Assembly (NCBI GenBank): GCA_028872875.1
Contig: JAGWOC010000002.1
Span: 38,574 to 102,573, forward strand
Direction of reading: 5' to 3'
Length of the DNA stretch: 64,000 bases
Source: Chloroflexota bacterium
GTDB taxonomy: Bacteria; Chloroflexota; Dehalococcoidia; DSTF01; JACRBR01
Within the stretch, counting starts at the first letter, position 1; every line of letters starts with the position of its first letter. This document shows, in pieces, positions 3,738 through 32,219 of this stretch. The position numbers and the translations under genes are program-made. A model generated the notes under the pieces. The model searched no databases. It was not told where the DNA came from and was given only the letters and a program-made list of their open reading frames with translations.

Positions 3738-5258
3738 TCAGATCGCGCCTTCGCGCAACCACTCGCCCGCCCGCTCGCCGATCATCACCGACGTCAGGTG
3801 GATGTTCGCGCGCGGGCACTTCGGCATCACCGACGCGTCCGCCACGTACAGGTTGTCGAGACCGCGCAGCCGCAGGTGCTGGTCCACCACGCCCATCGGG
3901 TCGCTGGCCGGCGCCATCTTCGCCGTGCAGCTCGGATGGAACCCGCTGGACGCCACCATCTTGCACCAGCGTCCGAGCGCCTCGTCGTCCTCGAACGCCG
4001 CCACCGGCGGCGCCTTCACGCCGTCCATCAGGTGTGCGAACTCCGCGTGCTCGCCGACGGCCAGCGCCATTCGCATGCCCTCGACGAGCCGCCGTACGTC
4101 CTCGGGCTCCTCGCAGAACCGGTTCTCGATGCGCGGCGCCACGTGCGGGTCGGCCGACGTCAGCGTCAGGCGGCCCATCGACTTCTGCCGGTAGATCACC
4201 GACCCGATCGAGTACACGTACTGGCCGCTCCGCGTCGCGAACTGCGAGATCGGCATCAACTGCATGTCGTTGCGCTCGGTGCCGCCCGTCGACGTGTAGC
4301 GGTACGTCACCTGCACGATCGGGTCGTCGCCGTTCAGGTAGCCGTCCTTCGCCGCGTACACCACGCCGAGCATCGGGTGGTCGTCGAGCTGCGCGCCGAC
4401 GCCCGGCAGGTCCTCGACGATGTCGATGCCCAGCTCGCGCAGATGCGCCGCAGGCCCGATGCCCGACCGCATCAGGATCGCGGGCGACGCGATCGCGCCC
4501 GAGGACAGCACGATGCGCGCGCCCTCGACGGTCTGGACGCTGCCGCCCGACTCCACCTCGACGCCGGTCGCCCGCGCGCCGTCCGTCAGGATGCGGCGCA
4601 CGAGGCAGTCGCCGCGCACCGTCAGGTTCAGGCGGTGACGCGCCGGCTCCAGGTAGCAGATCGCGACGCTCATGCGCGTCCGCCCGCGCTTGTTCATCGG
4701 GTGCGGCGCCAGCCCGGTGGACATCGGGTCGTTGTTGTCCTTCGTCTCCGGGTACCCCAGCGCGCGCATCGCCCGCATGAAGGCGAGCTGCACCGGCGCC
4801 AGCTCGTCCTCGCGGTAGCGCCTCACCGGGATCGGGCCGTTGCGCCCGTGATAGTCGTCGTCGAAGTCCATGTCGGTCTCGAGCCGCCGGAAGTACGGCA
4901 GCACCCGCTCCCACGACCAGAGGTCGTTGCCAAACGCCGCCCACTCGTCGTAGTCCTCCGGCGTCCCGCGCAGCGCGATCGCCGTGTTCACCGCCGACGA
5001 GCCGCCGACGACGCGCCCGCTGGGCAGCGGCGCCAGGCGGCCCGCGGTGTTCGCCTCCGCCATCCAGTCCCAGTTGTGCGGCGAGTACGAGTTGTCGTTG
5101 CCGTTGAGCAGCCCAGCCGGCATCTCGTCGACCGTCCGGTAGTACGGCCCCGCCTCCAGCAGCAGCACCGAGATCGCCGGGTCCTCCGACAGCCGCGCGG
5201 CGATCGTCGCGCCCGCCGCCCCGGCGCCGAGAATGATCACGTCGTAGCGCACACGCAC
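3738..5258 (-). CDS. GMC family FAD oxidoreductase (choline dehydrogenase/alcohol oxidase-like)
   Basis: YDVIILGAGAAG, GRVVGGSSAVN, LMRSGIG, FHPSCTAKM and YVADASVMP motifs. Confidence 0.92.
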   Translation of the reverse strand: MRVRYDVIILGAGAAGATIAARLSEDPAISVLLLEAGPYYRTVDEMPAGLLNGNDNSYSPHNWDWMAEANTAGRLAPLPSGRVVGGSSAVNTAIALRGTPEDYDEWAAFGNDLWSWERVLPYFRRLETDMDFDDDYHGRNGPIPVRRYREDELAPVQLAFMRAMRALGYPETKDNNDPMSTGLAPHPMNKRGRTRMSVAICYLEPARHRLNLTVRGDCLVRRILTDGARATGVEVESGGSVQTVEGARIVLSSGAIASPAILMRSGIGPAAHLRELGIDIVEDLPGVGAQLDDHPMLGVVYAAKDGYLNGDDPIVQVTYRYTSTGGTERNDMQLMPISQFATRSGQYVYSIGSVIYRQKSMGRLTLTSADPHVAPRIENRFCEEPEDVRRLVEGMRMALAVGEHAEFAHLMDGVKAPPVAAFEDDEALGRWCKMVASSGFHPSCTAKMAPASDPMGVVDQHLRLRGLDNLYVADASVMPKCPRANIHLTSVMIGERAGEWLREGAI

Positions 5259-15031: not shown

Positions 15032-16138
15032 CTAACGCGCTACCGCCTGCATCTTCCGCAGCTTCTCGATGACGGCGTCCGCGACCTGCGAGGTGCCCAC
15101 GGCCGCCGGGTCGTTGCGGTCCGCCTTCATGTCGTACGTGACCGACCTGCCCTCGCGGATCACCTCCGCGAGCGCGCGCTCCAGGCGGTCGCCGGCGTCC
15201 TGCTCGCCCATGTGGCGGAGCATCAGCATGCCGCTGAACATCATCGCCATCGGGTTGACCTTGTTCTGGCCGGCGTACTTCGGGGCGCTGCCGTGGATCG
15301 GCTCGAAGAGCGCGGTCACGTCGCCGATGTTCGCGCCGGGCGCGACGCCGAGGCCGCCGACGAGGCCGGCGCACAGGTCGGAGAGGATGTCGCCGTAGAG
15401 GTTGGGCAGCAGCAGCACGTCGAACCACTCCGGCCTCTGCACGAGCTGCATGCAGAGCGCGTCGACGAGCACCTCTTCGTACTCGATGTCCGGGTACTCC
15501 TTCGCGACCTCCCGCGAGACGGCGTAGAAGAGGCCGTCGGTGTACTTCATGATGTTCGCCTTGCTGATGGCGGACACCTTCTTGCGCCCGTTCTTGCGCG
15601 CGTACTCGAAGGCGTACTTCGCGATGCGGCGCGTCCCGAACTCGGAGATCATCTTGATGCTGATGCCGGCGTCGTCGCGGATCGTGCCCTGCCCGCTCTC
15701 GGCCACCATCGCCGAGAGCTGCGCCACGTACGGTGACCCCTTCTGGAACTCGATACCGGCGTACAGGTCCTCGGTGTTTTCGCGTACGATGACCACGTCG
15801 ACGTTGGCGTCGGCGTAGCGGGTGCGGACGCCGGGATAGACCTTGCACGGCCGCACGCAGGCGTAGAGTTGCAGCGCCTTGCGCAGGGCGACGTTGACGC
15901 TGCGAAAGCCGGTGCCGATCGGCGTCGTCACCGGCCCCTTGATGCCGAGCCTGGTGCTGGCGAGGGAGTCGATCGCCCGCTGGGGGAGCGGCGTCCCCTC
16001 CTTCTCCATCACGTCGACGCCGACGTTCTGCACGTCCCAGTCGAAGGCGACCCCGGTCGCCTCAAGGACGCGCCGTGTCGCCTCGGTGATCTCCGGACCG
16101 GTGCCGTCGCCGGGGATCAGCGTCACTCGGTATGCCAT
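15032..16138 (-). CDS. icd: Isocitrate dehydrogenase (IDH/IPMDH family, probably NAD-type)
   Basis: IPGDGTGPEI, SVNVALRK, RENTEDLY, PNLYGDILSD and EPIHGSAPKY motifs; TCA operon context. Confidence 0.88.
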   Translation of the reverse strand: MAYRVTLIPGDGTGPEITEATRRVLEATGVAFDWDVQNVGVDVMEKEGTPLPQRAIDSLASTRLGIKGPVTTPIGTGFRSVNVALRKALQLYACVRPCKVYPGVRTRYADANVDVVIVRENTEDLYAGIEFQKGSPYVAQLSAMVAESGQGTIRDDAGISIKMISEFGTRRIAKYAFEYARKNGRKKVSAISKANIMKYTDGLFYAVSREVAKEYPDIEYEEVLVDALCMQLVQRPEWFDVLLLPNLYGDILSDLCAGLVGGLGVAPGANIGDVTALFEPIHGSAPKYAGQNKVNPMAMMFSGMLMLRHMGEQDAGDRLERALAEVIREGRSVTYDMKADRNDPAAVGTSQVADAVIEKLRKMQAVAR

Positions 16139-16428
16139 GGCGGGGCTCCTGACATCGGGCGGCGCGATCCGGCGCCGGGCTGCTGTTCCGCGTGCATCAC
16201 GACCGGTCTGTCAGGCGCTGGGGCAAAGGCCCTCAGCGCGATTCCGGCAGGCGGATCACTGGGCCCTTTCCTCGTGGAAGGTCGCTCCGGTCTCGCTCGC
16301 GACTGCTCCCTGGGAGCCCGTTGGGCCCGAGCTGAGGCGTTCTGGAGCAACGTCACTATACACCCGGCCGATCGCGCCAAAACAGGGTCGTTTGGGCGCA
16401 ATTGGACGGACGCCTGGCCCCTGCCCCG

Positions 16429-16455
16429 TACGGGTCTGGCCGCCCGTGCCGATAC
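16429..16455 (+). promoter_or_regulatory. Candidate sigma28-type promoter for the GGDEF gene
   Basis: TACG-N15-GCCGATAC. Confidence 0.55.
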
Positions 16456-16478
16456 TCGTGAGGGTAGGGGGTATCGCT

Positions 16479-17300
16479 GTGAGTGCACGTGCGCCGCGCC
16501 GCATCCGCCTCGTCGAAGGCGGCGGAGAATCCCCGCTGATCACCGCCGAGGGGCGCCCGAGCGAGCGCAAGCGGGGCATCTCGTGGGTGCCGGTGACGCT
16601 GCGGCTGCTCACCATCGCCTGGGGCGGCACGATCATCGCCGCCCTGCTCGACACGTTCGGGCTCGTGCCGCACCTGCCGTTCCTGCTCGCCATCGGCATG
16701 ACCGGCTTCCTCGTCGCGGCGATCTTCGTGCTCACCCGCGACGAGAGCCGGGAGCGCGAGGACGCGGCGGAATCCGACCCCGACGGCGACGCTGCCCACG
16801 ATCTGCTCACCGAGCTGCCGACGTTCAACCACTTCGCCCGCAGGCTCAACGACGAGTTCACCCGCGCCCGCCGCATGGGACGCCCGGTGTCCGTCGTGCT
16901 GGTCGATGTCAACAACCTCACGGCAGTGAACCGGGAATACGGCGTGCGCGCTGGAGACGCCGTGCTCCGCCACGTGGCGCGCACGATCGATGCCACGAAG
17001 CGCTTCAACGACGTGGTGGCCCGGCTCGGGGACGACGAGTTCGGGGTGCTGCTGATCGACACCGGCGAGGAGGGGATCGCCGCCTTCATCGAGCGGCTCG
17101 AAGATCGCCTCGCGCGCGAATCGGCCATGGCCGAGGTCGGTGGCCGCGACGTCTCGCTGTGGGCTGGCGTCTGCTCCGGCAGCGCCTGCGGCACGCCCGA
17201 CATCATGGGTGCTGAGAGGTTGCTGGAGGCGGCGATGGCGAGCCTCAACCAGGCGAAGCAGGACCGTGAACGCCGCCGCCGGATGTGGCTGTCGGCGTAG
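16479..17300 (+). CDS. Membrane-anchored degenerate GGDEF-domain protein
   Basis: Two TM helices, then LTELPTFNHF, VDVNNL, YGVRAGD and RFNDVVARLGDDEF; GTG start inferred. Confidence 0.85.
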   Translation: MSARAPRRIRLVEGGGESPLITAEGRPSERKRGISWVPVTLRLLTIAWGGTIIAALLDTFGLVPHLPFLLAIGMTGFLVAAIFVLTRDESREREDAAESDPDGDAAHDLLTELPTFNHFARRLNDEFTRARRMGRPVSVVLVDVNNLTAVNREYGVRAGDAVLRHVARTIDATKRFNDVVARLGDDEFGVLLIDTGEEGIAAFIERLEDRLARESAMAEVGGRDVSLWAGVCSGSACGTPDIMGAERLLEAAMASLNQAKQDRERRRRMWLSA

Positions 17301-17923: not shown

Positions 17924-17950
17924 GTATCGGCCGGGAGGGGCCGATCCGCA
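17924..17950 (-). promoter_or_regulatory. Candidate sigma28-type promoter for TetR-1
   Basis: Minus strand TGCG-N15-GCCGATAC, ending 14 nt before ATG. Confidence 0.5.
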
Positions 17951-18199: not shown

Positions 18200-19711
18200 T
18201 CACGCCGCCTGCTTCGGTGCGGCGGCGGCGTGGTGTTCTGTCGGCGCCTCGTGGTCGGCCATGCGGATCTTGACGATCTCGTCGAAGGCGAGCAGGAAGG
18301 CCTGGACGCAGCGCGGGTCGAACTGGCTGCCGCTGCACTTGATGATCTCGTCCCGCGACACCTCGGCCGAGAGCGCGCGCCGGTAGGGGCGGTCGGACGT
18401 CATCGCGTCGAACGTGTCCGCCAGCACGAAGATGCGCGCGCCGAGCGGGATCTCGTCCGCCAGCAGCCCCAGCGGGTAGCCCTTGCCGTCGAAGCGCTCG
18501 TGGTGCGCCAGGACGAGGCTGGCGGCGCCCGACAGGAACGAGATGTCCTTGAGCATGTCGTGGCCGATCTTCGGGTGGCGGCGCATGTCCACCCACTCCT
18601 CGTCGGTGAGCGGCCCCGGCTTGTGCAGGATCGTGTCGGAGACGCCGATCTTGCCGACGTCGTGCAGGAGGGCGCCCCGCTGCATGTCCAGCCACTCGTC
18701 GGTGCCGGGCGCGATGCCCATGTGGTAGGCGATCTCCATCATGTACTTGGCGACGCGGATCGAGTGGCCCTTCGTCTCGCGGTCGCGCGCGTCGAGCGCG
18801 GAGACGAGGGCCTCGAGCGTGCCGTCGTACGTCCGCCGGAGCTCGTCGGCCATCTGCAGGATGTCGGTGTTCGCCTTCTGGAGGTCCTGGTTCGTCTTCC
18901 GCAGCTCCTCGACATTCTCGGCCGTCTTGTCGATGTACTGCTTCATGGAGAGCCGTACCAAGAGCGGCGGCGCCGCGAAGGCTAGGATGCCGAGCACGCC
19001 CACGCCCGCGTACCCCACCGCCAGCGCCGCGCCCAGAAGTGCCGCCACGACGTAGTGTGGCAGCAGCCAGGCGAAATCGTCGTGCCACACGGCGTAGGTC
19101 TGCCGTCGCGTCGCCAGGCTCGCCGCGGTCGCAACTAGCGTGGTGTTAACCGCGTAATACACGACAACGGTCGCGGCAGTCACCGCGACGAGCAGGGCGG
19201 AGGTCGTCATGTGGCCGCCCATGAGGAGCCAGGCCACGCCCGCGATCGTGAGGTTGGAGAGCGTCACGGACCCGATGTCGAACAGCCGTTTGTACCACGG
19301 CGCGCCCGTCTCGTGGTCAGCCAAGAGGGCGGCGACCGGGCCGACGATGACGGCGCCGGCCGGGCCGAACAGCAGCGCGACCGCGAAGTCGCCGACCATA
19401 CCCAGCGAAATCGTCGTATCCCCGTAGATCGAGATCCGCGTCCTGCCCGCCGCGACGGCGAGCACGCCCAGGATGACAAATCCGGTCAGGTCCGACGTGT
19501 TGAGCTGGGGCGCGAAGTACGCCACTGCCGCCAGCCCCAGCGCGAAGACGAGCAGGACGTAGACCAGCGCCGGCCGCGGCAGGCGCGCCTCGGCCTCTGC
19601 GGCGGCGCCAGGCTGGACCGGCAGCGGGACGACGTTGGACGGCGCGTCGCCGCGCACGGCCCGCGTCTCGTCGCGGCCGTCGGCCGGTTCTTCGAAGGCT
19701 CGGTTCAGCAT
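18200..19711 (-). CDS. HD-GYP c-di-GMP phosphodiesterase with multi-TM N-terminal sensor domain
   Basis: GHSIRVA, LLHDVGKIG, HHERFDGKGYP and DAMTSDRPYR motifs; about 6-7 TM helices N-terminally. Confidence 0.93.
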   Translation of the reverse strand: MLNRAFEEPADGRDETRAVRGDAPSNVVPLPVQPGAAAEAEARLPRPALVYVLLVFALGLAAVAYFAPQLNTSDLTGFVILGVLAVAAGRTRISIYGDTTISLGMVGDFAVALLFGPAGAVIVGPVAALLADHETGAPWYKRLFDIGSVTLSNLTIAGVAWLLMGGHMTTSALLVAVTAATVVVYYAVNTTLVATAASLATRRQTYAVWHDDFAWLLPHYVVAALLGAALAVGYAGVGVLGILAFAAPPLLVRLSMKQYIDKTAENVEELRKTNQDLQKANTDILQMADELRRTYDGTLEALVSALDARDRETKGHSIRVAKYMMEIAYHMGIAPGTDEWLDMQRGALLHDVGKIGVSDTILHKPGPLTDEEWVDMRRHPKIGHDMLKDISFLSGAASLVLAHHERFDGKGYPLGLLADEIPLGARIFVLADTFDAMTSDRPYRRALSAEVSRDEIIKCSGSQFDPRCVQAFLLAFDEIVKIRMADHEAPTEHHAAAAPKQAA

Positions 19712-19755
19712 GCTACCGCCAGATGCGCATATCGCCGCCGGAAGGGCCCGTAGTA

Positions 19756-19782
19756 GTATCGGCAGCGGCGCGGCGGGCCTGA
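19756..19782 (-). promoter_or_regulatory. Candidate sigma28-type promoter for the HD-GYP gene
   Basis: Minus strand TCAG-N15-GCCGATAC, ending 44 nt before ATG. Confidence 0.55.
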
Positions 19783-19795
19783 GCCGCCGGGAGGC

Positions 19796-20521
19796 TCAGG
19801 CGGCCTGGTCGATCTCGGCGGCGAGCTGGCGCCGGAGCGTCGCCAGGATGCGCTTGTGAAGCTGGCAGACCCGGGACTCCGAGAGCCCGAGCATCTCGCC
19901 GATGACGTGGAACGGCCTGGATTCAGCGTATCGGAGCTTCAGGATGGCCCGGTCTCGCGCGTTCAGGTCGTGCAGCACCACATCGAGCATCGCAAGCGAG
20001 GCATTGTGGTCGGCCGCCTTGGCGGGGTCACCGGACTCGTCTTCGTCCACCGGGTCCAGCGCGGGGCCGTTCTCGCCACCCCGGTCCTGGAGCGCGTGCT
20101 CCAGCGAGATGAACTTCGAGTTGGCGTGGCGCAGGATGCCGTGGAGCTGGTCCGCAGGCATGCCGAGGCGGACGGCGACCTCCTTCGTCGTCGGCCAGCG
20201 GCCGAGCGATGCCGCGAGCTCCTGCGACGCGTGCTCGACCTCCCGCGTGCTCTTGCGCAGCGAGCGCGGCAACGGGTCCATCTTGCGGATGGCGTCCAGG
20301 ATTGAGCCGCGGATGCGCCGCACGGCGAAGCTCGCGAAGCTCGTGCCGCGCTCGGCGTCGAAGGCGTCGATCGCCTGGATCAGGCCCTCGGTGCCGTAGG
20401 CGAGCGCGTCCTCGCGGTCGAGCCCCAGGGTCTTCTGGTTGTCCGTGGACATGCGGCTGACGACGAAGGCCACGAGCGGCATGTGCCGCATGATCATCTC
20501 CTGGCGGTCTGGACTGCGCAT
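19796..20521 (-). CDS. fliA: FliA/WhiG (sigma28-family) RNA polymerase sigma factor
   Basis: GLIQAIDAFDAERGTSFASFAVRRIRGSILDAIRKMDPLPRSLR and IGEMLGLSESRVCQLH; GGGGGAG SD 6 nt before ATG 20521. Confidence 0.9.
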   Translation of the reverse strand: MRSPDRQEMIMRHMPLVAFVVSRMSTDNQKTLGLDREDALAYGTEGLIQAIDAFDAERGTSFASFAVRRIRGSILDAIRKMDPLPRSLRKSTREVEHASQELAASLGRWPTTKEVAVRLGMPADQLHGILRHANSKFISLEHALQDRGGENGPALDPVDEDESGDPAKAADHNASLAMLDVVLHDLNARDRAILKLRYAESRPFHVIGEMLGLSESRVCQLHKRILATLRRQLAAEIDQAA

Positions 20522-20617
20522 GAGAAGCTCCCCCGCAACGCGGAACCTGACTTCGCGCCGGAAGCTGCGACAGGGGAGATGCGCGGGAGACGCTGTCGAG
20601 CGTTGGGGGCTCGAGGT

Positions 20618-20697
20618 CTTCGGCGGCCCGGCCATCCGCGCGTACGGCGGACCCGTGGCTTTGCGTCCTCGCCTTTCGGCGAGTTTGCCCTGTCGGA
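20618..20697 (-). ncRNA. c-di-GMP-I (GEMM-I) riboswitch aptamer
   Basis: Minus strand CGACAGGGCAAACTCGCC-GAAA-GGCGAGGACGCAAAGCCACGGGTCC...GGATGGCCGGGCCGCCGAAG, matching the canonical GGGCAAAC / GAAA / GACGCAAAGCC pattern. Confidence 0.92.
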
Positions 20698-20845
20698 ACC
20701 TCTGACGATGACATCCAGGGCATCCTGCCGGGCCACGGGCGAGTCGTTCGCCCTCCATCAGCCTTAACGCTGCCGGGGGCCATGTGTTACAGGCCGGGGG
20801 GATCTTTTTTCGTCTGGGCGCAATGTGGGAGATTGTCAAGGGGTA

Positions 20846-20904
20846 TTGGCAAATGGGAGATCCTGTTGCATACTGACTTCGACGCAGGGGGCTGCGGACG
20901 ATAC
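20846..20904 (+). promoter_or_regulatory. Tandem promoters for TetR-2: sigma70-like and sigma28-like
   Basis: TTGGCA-N17-CATACT (20846-20874) and TTCG-N15-GACGATAC (20878-20904). Confidence 0.55.
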
Positions 20905-20936
20905 TCGCGGGGCGGGATCACGCCGGAGGGGGCGCC

Positions 20937-21551
20937 ATGGACCGATTCGAGCAACGCAAGCTGACCCGGGCACGGCTGATCGACGGTGCGCTGAAGCTGT
21001 TTTCGGCGAACGGCTACGACCACGCCACCATCGACGACATCTCGCAGGAGGCGGGCTACTCGAAGGGCGCCTACTACTTCCACTTCTCCACGAAGGAGGA
21101 CATCCTCCTCGAGCTGCTCCGCCGCTGGAGCGACGACCGCGCGTCCGGGCTCGCCGCGGTTGGCGGCAGCGACGGCGCCCGCGACCTGCGCGCGACGCTC
21201 GAGGCGCTCTTCTCCTACGAGCGCGAGCCGCGCTGGCCGGGCATGCTGCTGGAGTTCTGGGCGCAGTCGATGCGGAACGACGAGGTGAAGAAGCGCCTCG
21301 CCCAGGTGTACGGCGCCTGTCGCCAGGAGCTGGCGGCGTCATTCGCGGATGCCGCCCAGGCCGGCGCGGTGCGCGCCGGGTCCGCCGACGAGGCCGCGGG
21401 TATCGCGCTGGCGGCGCACGATGGGTATGTGGTACAGCTTGCCATCGGCTCGCCGGCCGGCAAGCTGATGACGCCCGCACAACTCGCCGACGCGCTCCTC
21501 TCGCCCCTCGAGGCCGCTCCTTCCGGGAAGCGTCGCGCAGCCGCGGTCTAG
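20937..21551 (+). CDS. TetR/AcrR family regulator (TetR-2)
   Basis: GYDHATIDDISQEAGYSKGAYYFHFSTKE; GGAGGGGG SD. Confidence 0.93.
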   Translation: MDRFEQRKLTRARLIDGALKLFSANGYDHATIDDISQEAGYSKGAYYFHFSTKEDILLELLRRWSDDRASGLAAVGGSDGARDLRATLEALFSYEREPRWPGMLLEFWAQSMRNDEVKKRLAQVYGACRQELAASFADAAQAGAVRAGSADEAAGIALAAHDGYVVQLAIGSPAGKLMTPAQLADALLSPLEAAPSGKRRAAAV

Positions 21552-29722: not shown

Positions 29723-29730
29723 TTCCCCAA

Positions 29731-29860
29731 ACCGCATAAGGCCGAATCCGCGGACGCGGAGCGGGGGAACCATCGGTGGGGTGAATCTCGCGCGACGGCG
29801 CGAGTAGGTCAGCCTTCTCAGACCGAACCCGACAGCTAACCTCGCAGGCACGTGAGAGGC
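29731..29860 (+). ncRNA. c-di-AMP (ydaO/yuaA) riboswitch
   Basis: GCCGAATCC...GAGCGGGGGAACCA...TGGGGTGAATC...TAGG...CCGAACCCGACAGCTAACCTCGCAGGC, matching the ydaO consensus blocks. Confidence 0.92.
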
Positions 29861-29873
29861 GACGACGCTCGAT

Positions 29874-29902
29874 GAAGGGCAGGGTCGCTCCCTGTCCTTC
29901 TT
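29874..29902 (+). terminator. Terminator-like hairpin forming the riboswitch expression platform
   Basis: GAAGGGCAGGG-TCGCT-CCCTGTCCTTC-TT; short U-tract. Confidence 0.6.
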
Positions 29903-29954
29903 GGTGTCCCTCGCGCTGCTGTTCGACCGGCATGGATCGCAGGAGGCCGGCGTT

Positions 29955-32219
29955 TTGACGACCATCGCCCCGCAGCCCGCCGCACCGTCGCTGCCGTACC
30001 CGTCCGAGGTCCCGCCGGCGACCGGACGCCTTCTTCTCGTCGCCAACCGGCTGCCCATCACCGCCAGGATCGGCGACGATGGTGCGATCAGCGTCGAGCC
30101 GTCATCGGGCGGGCTCGCCACGGGGCTCTGGGGTCCGCATCAGCGCTCCGGCGGCCTCTGGATCGGCTGGCCCGGCGAGCTGCAGCTCGACCCACGGCAG
30201 AAGCGGCAGCTCGACGACAAGCTCGCCGACCTCCGCGCGCTACCCGTCTACCTCACGCAGGACGAGGTCAACGAGTACTACGAGAACATGGCGAACGGCG
30301 TCCTCTGGCCGCTGTTTCACTACCTCATCGACCAGCTCCCGAACGAGCTCGGAGACTGGAATGTCTTCCGCGGCGTCAACGAGAAATTCGCCCGCGCCGT
30401 CATCGACAACTACCGCTCCGGAGACCTGATCTGGGTGCAGGACTACCACCTGATGCTCGTGCCGGCGATGCTGCGTCGCGCCCTCCCCGATGCCCGCATC
30501 GGGTTCTTCCTCCATGTGCCGTTCCCCTCGTCCGAGGTGTTCAGCGTGCTGCCCTGGCGCGAGGAGATCCTCCAGGGCCTGCTCGGCGCCGACCTCATCG
30601 GCTTCCACACGCCCGGCTACCTCCGCCACTTCAGCACGTCGCTCCGCCGCGTGCTTGGCGTCGACGTCGATGTTGACGCGCTCTGGCAGGACGAGCGCCG
30701 GGTGCGGCTCGGCGTCTTCCCGATGGGCGTCGATGCCGCCCGCTGGGCGCGCTCTGCCGACAGCCCCGAGGTCGCGCGCGAGGTCGCTTCCCTGTGCGAG
30801 GAGGCCGGCGGCCGCAAGATCATCGTCGGCATCGACCGGCTCGACTACACGAAGGGCATCCCGCGGCGCCTCGTCGCCATCGACCGGCTGTTCGCCGACC
30901 ATCCGGAGCTCTGTGACCGCGTGCGTGTCGTGCAGGTCACCGTGCCGTCGCGCGAACACGTCGAGCAATACGCCGAGTTCAAGCGCCGCATCGACGAGCT
31001 GGTCGGCCGCATCAACGGCACCCACGCCACCGCGAGCTGGATGCCCATCCATCACATGTACCGCGCGATCTCCCAGGCGGAGGTCTGCGCGCTCTATCGT
31101 GCCGCCGACGTGATGCTCGTGACGCCCGTCCGCGACGGCATGAACCTCGTCGCCAAGGAGTTCGTCGCCACCCGCACCGACGAAGACGGCGTGCTGATCC
31201 TCAGCGAGTTCGCCGGCGCCGCCGCCGAGATGGGCGAGGCGCTGCACATCAACCCGTTCGACACAGAGCGCCTGGCCGCGCGCATCAATGATGCGCTGTC
31301 CATGCCCGAGCCCGAACGCAAAGCCCGCATGCGCGCCCTCCGCTCACGCGTGCTGACCCACGACGTGCACCGCTGGGCCGAGTCGTTCATCGGCGCGCTG
31401 GCGGAGACCGGCCCGGCGTACCGCCGTTCGCAGCGCGCGTCCGCTCCGTCCGATCTCGCGTCGATTGTCGAATGTGTCCGCCGGGCGCCCCAGGCGCTGC
31501 TGGTCCTCGACTACGATGGCACGCTCGTCCCCTTCGCCCCGACGCCCGACGAGGCCGTCCCGGATCCTGACCTGCGCGACCTTCTGAGCGCGCTGGCGGC
31601 GCGGCCCGGCCTGCACGTGCACGTGGTCAGCGGACGCACCCGCGCTTCGCTTGACCGCTGGCTCGGCTGCCTTCCCGTCGGCCTGCACGCGGAGCACGGC
31701 CTCTGGTCACGCCTTGCGCCGGGCGCGCCCTGGCGCATCCTGCGCCCCGTGTCGCAGGAGTGGAAGGAGAAGGTCCGCCCGATCATGGAGCACTTCGTCG
31801 GCGCGACCCGCGGCACCTTCATCGAGGAGAAGACCGGCTCGCTCGCGTGGCACTACCGGCTGGCGAAGGCAGACTTCGCGCCGGAGACCGATTTCGGCGA
31901 GTACCAGGCGAAGGAGTTGCGCCTGCTGCTCGGCGAGATGCTGAGCAACGCCCCCGTCCAGGTCCTCGCCGGCAACAAGGTCGTGGAAGTGCGGCCGCAG
32001 GGCGTCCACAAGGGGATGATCGTGCCCGTGCTCCTCTCGACGATCGAGGATCAGGCGCCCATCCTCGTGGTCGGCGACGACCGCACCGACGAAGACATCT
32101 TCGCTGCCCTCCCGGATGACGCGCTCACGGTGCACGTCGGGTCGGGCGTCAGCCTCGCCCAGTTCCGCGTCGATACGCCCGCCGACGTCCGCCGCCTCCT
32201 CCGCGCCATCGTCGCCTGA
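29955..32219 (+). CDS. otsA: Bifunctional trehalose-6-phosphate synthase/phosphatase (OtsA-OtsB fusion)
   Basis: [34 protein letters not shown] and LDYDGTL HAD motif; TTG start after AGGAGG. Confidence 0.95.

Follow-up and report, generated by a model that had tools for sequence, protein, structure and literature searches.

The leader of a FliA/WhiG-like sigma factor gene in a Chloroflexota bacterium (GenBank assembly GCA_028872875.1, contig JAGWOC010000002.1, positions 38,574 to 102,573; the whole 64,000-nucleotide stretch is called the window, and positions are counted from its first letter) is, in our reading, a canonical class-I riboswitch for cyclic di-GMP (c-di-GMP) that acts as an OFF switch on the sigma gene by masking its ribosome-binding site. 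We give this reading a probability of roughly 0.7. It is carried by the aptamer itself, by two mutually exclusive helices predicted for one downstream segment, and by orthologous leaders in which the homologous segment forms the 5′ arm of an intrinsic terminator.

The whole 64-kb window was scanned against Rfam with cmscan (Infernal) at the gathering thresholds, which gave three matches in total. One is a c-di-GMP-I-clan (GEMM-I) aptamer on the minus strand (Table 1), matched by RF03167 over its full length (model positions 1–80 of 80) with 69.1 bits and an E value of 2.9e-14 at a gathering score of 59, which is far beyond chance; over the same bases another family of this clan scored at or above its own gathering threshold and was masked by clan competition. 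A first-pass annotation, made from the letters alone, had placed a canonical c-di-GMP-I aptamer at 20618–20697 (−) and had proposed an Infernal search with Rfam as the check. The search bears that placement out, and the element can be called canonical although the top model is the “GGC” variant RF03167, since the G that defines the variant is absent, as discussed further below.

Ligand contacts in the Vibrio cholerae aptamer Vc2 are made by G20, A47 and C92 (PMC4744006, PMC5888326). Alignment to the covariance model gives equivalents for all three in the window (Table 1) and for the interhelical C44 (C20665), and the G of ACAGGGCAAAC falls on model position 10, the Vc2 G20 equivalent, as had been read in the first pass. 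Orthologous sigma loci were gathered from Chloroflexota metagenome-assembled genomes (MAGs) and from metagenomes (19 genome and 24 metagenome loci); after two duplicates and two loci without a leader had been dropped, 40 distinct leaders were available, the window included. The aptamer stands directly upstream of the sigma gene in 19/19 genome loci and 22/24 metagenome loci and is present in all 40 leaders; of the two metagenome exceptions, one is a contig cut before the upstream region and one comes from a distant relative (37% identity). The equivalents of G20, A47, C44 and C92 are unchanged in 40/40 aligned leaders. The first hairpin is capped by a GNRA loop in every one of them (GAAA, GAGA, GCAA, GCGA, GUGA, GUAA or GGAA), and pairing in the aptamer helices reaches 98.4%, compared with 30–44% for slid partners; in four pairs both nucleotides have changed. 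Judged by its sequence, the element is a canonical class-I c-di-GMP aptamer with a G20/A47/C92 pocket, and we infer c-di-GMP as its ligand.

Read on the minus strand, the motifs quoted in the first-pass annotation are all in place: CGACAGGG at 20695–20688, CTCCCCTGTCG at 20578–20568, GGGGGAG, the Shine–Dalgarno (SD) sequence, at 20534–20528, and ATG, six bases after it, at 20521–20519. CCCTGTCG and CGACAGGG are exact reverse complements of each other, as are CTCCCC and GGGGAG. The unconstrained minimum free energy (MFE) fold, at −84.7 kcal/mol, holds a long-range helix in which GAGGUU 20702–20697 pairs with AGCUUC 20566–20561 and CGACAGGG 20695–20688 pairs with CCCUGUCG 20575–20568. When the aptamer is enforced, CG 20622–20621 pairs with CG 20695–20694 and GACCUC 20618–20613 with GAGGUU 20702–20697 to form P1 and its extension, while the downstream segment (segment X in Table 1) pairs with the ribosome-binding region instead: GCGCAU 20584–20579 with AUGCGC 20521–20516, CUCCCC 20578–20573 with GGGGAG 20533–20528, and CGCAGC 20569–20564 with GUUGCG 20539–20534. 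In that constrained fold the probability that the SD and AUG are unpaired is about 0. The two helices both use 20575–20564 and are therefore mutually exclusive, so that the segment named in the first pass as a switching strand with two partners behaves as one when MFE and aptamer-constrained folds are compared.

The helices reach further than had been described. The leader helix had been drawn too short: as predicted, it spans 14 bp (20702–20688:20575–20561). Likewise the OFF helix is predicted to sequester the SD, as had been claimed, and to cover the start codon as well. This OFF hairpin, formed by X and the ribosome-binding region, has a predicted energy of −31.3 kcal/mol, compared with −18.6 kcal/mol for the local hairpin of the ligand-free fold. 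When the constraints are matched, only 4.5 kcal/mol separates the long-range ensemble from the less stable aptamer-closed one, a gap that the binding of a ligand with nanomolar or tighter affinity, the range of class-I aptamers, would easily cover. The claim that the SD is open in the absence of ligand holds in a relative sense only: it is predicted to stay partly paired with AGGUUCC 20548–20542, and the computed cost of opening 20536–20516 falls from 17.0 kcal/mol in the aptamer-closed state to 12.0 kcal/mol without ligand, a difference of about 5 kcal/mol. Taken for the window alone, the dual complementarity is equalled downstream by 5% of shuffled leader segments (z = −1.95), and it is convincing only together with the comparative data.

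We propose that the aptamer 5′ strand (20702–20688), made up of the P1 5′ strand and the ACAGGG junction with G20, would choose between these two mutually exclusive partners. With c-di-GMP bound, it would close P1 with 20622–20613 and its junction would be buried in the pocket; X (20584–20564) would then be free to form an 18-bp interrupted hairpin with the newly transcribed ribosome-binding region, covering both SD and AUG and blocking translation of the sigma factor. Without ligand, X (20575–20561) would invade the aptamer, starting at the unpaired ACAGGG junction, and the resulting 14-bp long-range helix would enclose the aptamer and destroy its pocket, leaving the ribosome-binding region in a weaker local hairpin from which translation would proceed. 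The direction and size of regulation in vivo, as well as the toehold kinetics, are those that we infer from this scheme.

The orthologues lend independent support to the direction of the switch. About 33 of the 40 leaders have a clear intrinsic terminator between aptamer and SD, typically GCCGCCUGUCG-loop-GGACAGGCGGCAUUUUU; terminators were called by automatic detection followed by correction by eye for three leaders (L021, L023 and L004), the T-runs of L021 and L023 lying in or near the SD spacer and hence not counting as terminators. Over the whole alignment the terminator stem shows 80% pairing, and in many of its pairs both partners have changed; for the columns of P1 and terminator taken jointly the figure is 80.1%, with both partners exchanged in 12 pairs. 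Complementarity to the conserved 5′ leader CAGAGG...CGAACAGGC, which is the P1 5′ strand together with the G20 junction, is found in the 5′ arm and loop of the terminator, and RNAduplex returns the terminator 5′ arm as the best partner of the leader in nearly every sequence. Cognate leaders and arms pair with a mean of −18.3 kcal/mol, a value that 0 of 5000 permutations reached, and non-cognate ones with −15.9 kcal/mol, and the long-range helix is 78.8% paired in the MAFFT alignment compared with 35–53% when slid.

Covariation is visible at the level of single columns and of whole helices. The column pair 16/161 of the long-range helix reads A-U in 17 leaders, G-C in 9 and G-U in 7. The outer part of this helix is CAGAGG:CCUCUG in most leaders and is swapped as a whole for GGUCCG:CGGACC in L041 and L016, for GGUCAC:GUGAC in L003 and L024, and for CGGGC:GCCCG in L039; in the sigma-protein tree, the whole-helix swaps fall in separate lineages. 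P1 and its extension, which this 5′ strand forms with the bases directly following the aptamer, alternate between GAGGU:ACCUC and GGUC:GACC; these columns are 79.6% paired, and four pairs have changed on both sides. The leader strand can thus choose P1 or the terminator 5′ arm, and since ligand should favour P1, the arm would be freed and transcription terminated, which is the logic of an OFF switch. By sequence, then, the terminator-bearing family is an OFF switch, in which the helix of 5′ leader and arm would serve as an antiterminator that also destroys the ligand pocket. The OFF direction proposed in the first-pass annotation agrees with this arrangement, the homologous segment being the terminator 5′ arm in these roughly 33 orthologues and its alternative partner the aptamer 5′ strand, with covariation between the two.

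The same alignments hold further conserved elements. The hairpin at 20596–20614 (columns ~105–125 of alignment A1) is found in nearly all 40 leaders with a stem that varies in sequence and a loop that reads CCCCGCC in most terminator types and CCCCCAAC in the window; this loop has its CCGCC in common with the 5′ arm of the terminator and could be a competitor for the 3′ arm. The element CGUCUCCCGCGCA at 20579–20591 (−), directly upstream of the switching segment, is conserved and takes the form CGUCUUCGA...GCGCA in terminator types; in the window its GCGCAU is the block predicted to pair with AUGCGC at the start codon. Many terminator-type orthologues start with ATGCG, and some might combine termination with masking of the start codon.

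Seven leaders are without a terminator: those of the window, L001, L020, L021, L002, L023 and L010. In the alignment, UCUCCCCUGUCGCAG-CUUCCGG of the window occupies the columns of UGCCGCCUGUCGUCCU-CCUCUGG in terminator types, and the columns of the terminator 3′ arm and U-tract are filled by unrelated sequence in the clade of the window; no terminator-like site was found in 19650–20960. Six of the seven form one clade in the sigma-protein tree (support 81/76), nested among terminator types, and L010 is a separate case, likewise nested among them, from which it follows that the translational platform derives from the terminator platform and arose at least twice. In 6/7 the segment predicted to pair with SD and AUG shares bases with the best partner of the 5′ leader, and the sequences involved differ across L002, L021 and L010. 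L002 offers CGCAUC-CCCCC to GGGGG...GAUGCG and CCC-UCGGA to UCCGA-CA-GGG, L021 forms the 8-bp helix GCGCAUCG:CGAUGCGC, and the anti-SD/AUG strand of L010 is UUCCUCC. The modelled platform of the window is one of SD and start-codon sequestering, in which the pairing of X with the ribosome-binding region excludes the aptamer-dependent leader helix.

Table 1. Position and basis of the elements of the leader, of the genes next to it and of the promoter-like boxes (all coordinates refer to the window).
Feature	Position	Strand	Basis and remarks
c-di-GMP-I (GEMM-I) aptamer	20618–20698	−	cmscan; G20 equivalent 20689, A47 equivalent 20662, C92 equivalent 20623; GAAA tetraloop 20677–20674
5′ switching strand GAGGUU-C-CGACAGGG (P1 5′ strand and G20 junction)	20688–20702	−	MFE and constrained folds; covariation of both alternative helices
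P1 3′ strand and extension	20613–20622	−	constrained fold; covariation of P1 and extension
Conserved hairpin UCGAGC-loop-GCUCGA, between aptamer and switching segment	20596–20614	−	folds; alignment of orthologues
Segment X, GCGCAU-CUCCCC-UGU-CGCAGC-UUC, putative two-partner strand	20561–20584	−	folds; homology to terminator 5′ arm and loop through alignment A1
Predicted weaker ligand-free partner of the SD region	20542–20558	−	MFE; AGGUUCC:GGAGCUU, GCGCG:UGCGC
Ribosome-binding region GUUGCG-GGGGAG-CUUCUC-AUGCGC	20516–20539	−	constrained fold; SD 20534–20528, start codon 20521–20519
Sigma factor gene, 241 residues, FliA/WhiG-like, group 3	19796–20521	−	Pfam Sigma70 r2, r3, r4; TIGR02479
HD-GYP c-di-GMP phosphodiesterase gene, membrane-anchored, next downstream	18200–19711	−	Pfam HD_5, E 6.6e-31; motif HHERFDGKGYP; synteny 19/19
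GCCGATA(C) box between sigma and HD-GYP genes	19757–19763	−	resembles sigma-28/WhiG-type −10 element
TGTAAC-N16-CGTT, candidate leader promoter	20766–20791	−	invariant in alignment A2 (12 intergenic regions); ~60 nt upstream of the leader

Several observations weigh against an OFF switch that masks the ribosome-binding site. The predicted ligand-free state leaves the SD largely paired (mean probability of being unpaired 0.29, opening cost 12 kcal/mol), GGAGCUU pairing with AGGUUCC 20548–20542 and UGCGC with GCGCG 20558–20554 in the MFE, so the modelled effect is a difference in accessibility and not a closed-to-open switch of the SD. The full-length MFEs of the close relatives L001, L020, L002 and L021 lack the long-range helix; such inconsistency in GC-rich RNA makes the thermodynamic picture fragile, and the full-length MFE is not relied on. 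The energies of the leader/arm duplexes lie individually near those of shuffled controls (mean z −1.06); single-sequence shuffles are weak in GC-rich RNA and were therefore replaced by the permutation of cognate and non-cognate pairs and by column counts. The covariation, shuffle and permutation counts given above nonetheless all come from related sequences, which overstates their independence. Among the leaders without a terminator, L023 uses another C-rich element to pair with its SD, and L020 has two substitutions that make the CUCCCC:GGGGAG pairing weaker. Lastly, no reads from the region were found in three small metatranscriptome runs of one study that holds the DNA.

The output in the lineage of the window might instead be transcriptional or act on RNA stability, by Rho-dependent termination or an RNase, or the switch might be partly degenerate after the loss of its terminator, the SD pairing then being secondary or incidental. 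In its favour, the platform from which the lineage started is a terminator, the predicted folds pair the SD whether or not the aptamer is closed, and C-rich anti-SD segments are common in a leader of 70% GC, where a second UCUCCC stands at 20590–20585 and corresponds to the element used by L023. Yet the region around the leader has no terminator-like site, the contiguous anti-AUG/anti-SD layout recurs with other sequences in L002, L021 and L010 and coincides with the leader-pairing segment in all but one of the terminator-less leaders, and aptamer and switching strand are intact throughout the clade. We therefore regard an output of this kind, or a decaying switch, as unlikely, although it deserves to be kept in mind.

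A ligand other than c-di-GMP, either 3′,3′-cyclic GMP-AMP or the ligand of the RF03167 GGC class, has in its favour that RF03167 is the top model for the window and for 10 of the 19 orthologous genome loci (60.6–71 bits), and some G20 aptamers were reportedly found to be promiscuous by Kellenberger et al. in 2015. The other nine orthologues, however, score best with RF01051 (56.7–64 bits at a gathering score of 35), all of them spanning model positions 1–87 of 87. Among the ligand-contacting positions the two consensus sequences differ at a single one, Vc2 A47, where RF03167 has CGCGAA and RF01051 has CGCAAA; the “GGC” in the name of RF03167 reportedly refers, in Weinberg et al. 2017, to positions 20, 47 and 92. 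The window reads CGCAAA, the RF03167 match line is blank at the A47 column, and A is found there in 40/40 leaders. The assignment to the GGC variant, whose defining G is thus an A throughout, was rejected. With scores split between the two models among orthologues and an A at the A47 position of the window, the label reflects a close contest of related models and not a variant pocket. Position 20 discriminates c-di-GMP from cyclic AMP-GMP (hereafter c-AMP-GMP), and it is changed in c-AMP-GMP-sensing variants (PMC9481103). The c-AMP-GMP class (GEMM-Ib), which needs an A at this position, was rejected as well, all 40 leaders having G. Since the locus is moreover built of c-di-GMP enzymes of the HD-GYP and GGDEF types, we consider another ligand very improbable. 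That ligand raises the expression of the sigma factor, as an ON switch, would fit the pairing of the SD in the ligand-free fold and the existence of class-I c-di-GMP riboswitches of both polarities, but closing the aptamer releases X into the strongest of the predicted SD/AUG hairpins, and the aptamer 5′ strand of the orthologues competes with the terminator 3′ arm for the 5′ arm in the manner of an OFF switch, so that we consider it very improbable too.

The gene under the proposed OFF switch had been called a sigma factor in the first pass, and Pfam finds sigma-70 regions 2, 3 and 4 in its 241-residue product. Its best NCBIfam match is TIGR02479 (FliA_WhiG) with 183.5 bits, just below the cutoff of 189.6, and from this sequence the protein is best called FliA/WhiG-like. 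The HD-GYP protein encoded next to it is a membrane protein of 503 residues that includes the motif HHERFDGKGYP. Its gene is followed by one of the TetR family, and next comes a GGDEF-domain gene in convergent orientation. A second TetR gene is divergent and upstream of the leader; the HD-GYP, GGDEF and both TetR genes are syntenic in 19/19 genome loci. No flagellar genes were identified among the neighbours of the sigma gene within the locus. The nearest relative is a Chloroflexota MAG whose sigma factor shares 98% amino-acid identity, and all others are MAGs of Chloroflexota/Dehalococcoidia; the DNA of the region was found in metagenomes mostly from mine drainage, and from groundwater and sediment. 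The GGDEF protein (15879–17300 (+)) has the signature GDDEF in place of GG(D/E)EF, with RFND five residues earlier. Such a sequence could belong to a degenerate cyclase or to a receptor for c-di-GMP, and the true start codon probably lies well inside the open reading frame.

Ahead of the HD-GYP gene, 20–40 nt past the sigma stop codon, a GCCGATA(C/T) box is present in 17/19 loci (L001–L019, ~3743–3864 (+)), often with CTACGG about 15 nt upstream of it. In the window GCCGATA occurs 12 times where 6.4 occurrences are expected, and its sites include 17925–17931 (−), before the downstream TetR gene, and 16448–16454 (+), before the GGDEF domain. The likeness of the box ahead of the HD-GYP gene to a sigma-28/WhiG −10 element suggests that this gene is driven by the sigma factor under riboswitch control. 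The candidate promoter of the leader itself, TGTAAC-N16-CGTT, resembles promoters of the extracytoplasmic function (ECF) sigma type, and a conserved TTGACA(A/G) is found further upstream of it, at ~40–60 nt in A2 (columns 123–128) and ~40 nt in the window. In the aligned intergenic regions AGTATGCA and GTATCGG are also invariant, and a sigma-70-like promoter, TTGGCA-N17-CATACT at 20846–20874 (+), faces the divergent TetR gene at 20937.

Taken together with the OFF switch, these boxes allow a tentative extension, possible but less than probable, in which the riboswitch is the input of a self-contained, lineage-conserved c-di-GMP circuit that may be bistable. At low c-di-GMP the sigma factor would be made and the HD-GYP gene transcribed from the sigma-28-like GCCGATA(C/T) promoters, and the sigma factor would probably also transcribe the two TetR genes and the gene of the degenerate GGDEF protein. 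With the phosphodiesterase made, c-di-GMP would fall still more, which would amount to positive feedback, and the ECF-type promoter TGTAAC-N16-CGTT upstream would add a second, envelope-linked input.

Elsewhere in the window, a full-length c-di-AMP (ydaO) riboswitch was found at 29730–29865 (+) with 94.8 bits. It lies directly upstream of a gene at 29901–32219 (+) for a fused trehalose-6-phosphate synthase/phosphatase (Glyco_transf_20 and Trehalose_PPase).

Neither the RNA class nor either type of platform nor the OFF polarity is new; in the literature that we searched, no c-di-GMP riboswitch was reported immediately ahead of a FliA/WhiG sigma gene. With the c-di-GMP-I class (RF01051, clan CL00126), for example V. 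cholerae Vc2, the aptamer shares P1, the P1b hairpin with its GNRA tetraloop, P2 and the G20, A47, C92 and C44 equivalents, and the scores given above exceed the gathering thresholds of the models concerned; it differs in its Chloroflexota host, in regulating a FliA/WhiG-like sigma gene, and in an alternative helix that uses the P1 5′ strand with the G20 junction and encloses the whole aptamer. With RF03167, the top model for the window, it shares P1, the stem lengths and the short P2 loop of the consensus and differs in the A at the A47 position discussed above. The best-studied functional parallel is Cd1 of Clostridioides difficile, an OFF riboswitch of the c-di-GMP-I class that lies upstream of the flgB operon, of which sigD is part (PMC3649979, PMC5386303, PMC6200980). 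Both are class-I OFF switches, by our reading of the leader described here, that ultimately lower a sigma-28-family factor at high c-di-GMP, and the orthologues of the window leader also use an intrinsic terminator; Cd1, however, precedes a long flagellar operon with sigD at a distance, whereas here the sigma gene comes first, and the predicted output in the window is SD/AUG sequestration rather than termination.

A second parallel lies at the level of protein. In Streptomyces and Rubrobacter, c-di-GMP negatively controls a WhiG/FliA-family sigma factor through the RsiG-(c-di-GMP)2-WhiG switch, in which RsiG is the anti-sigma factor. The negative control of a sigma factor of this family by c-di-GMP would be common to both systems, but RsiG is a c-di-GMP-binding anti-sigma factor that works post-translationally, whereas the control proposed here resides in the leader RNA of the sigma mRNA.

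The proposed riboswitch would couple the mRNA of a master regulator, a sigma factor of the WhiG/FliA family, directly to the sensing of c-di-GMP, in a phylum that has been little studied; Actinomycetota make the same link from c-di-GMP to sigma factor by the protein RsiG. The 40 leaders form a natural series in which one switching strand would act either as a terminator 5′ arm or as an anti-SD/anti-AUG strand, and the family may therefore be useful for studying how a transcriptional platform changes into a translational one at constant polarity.

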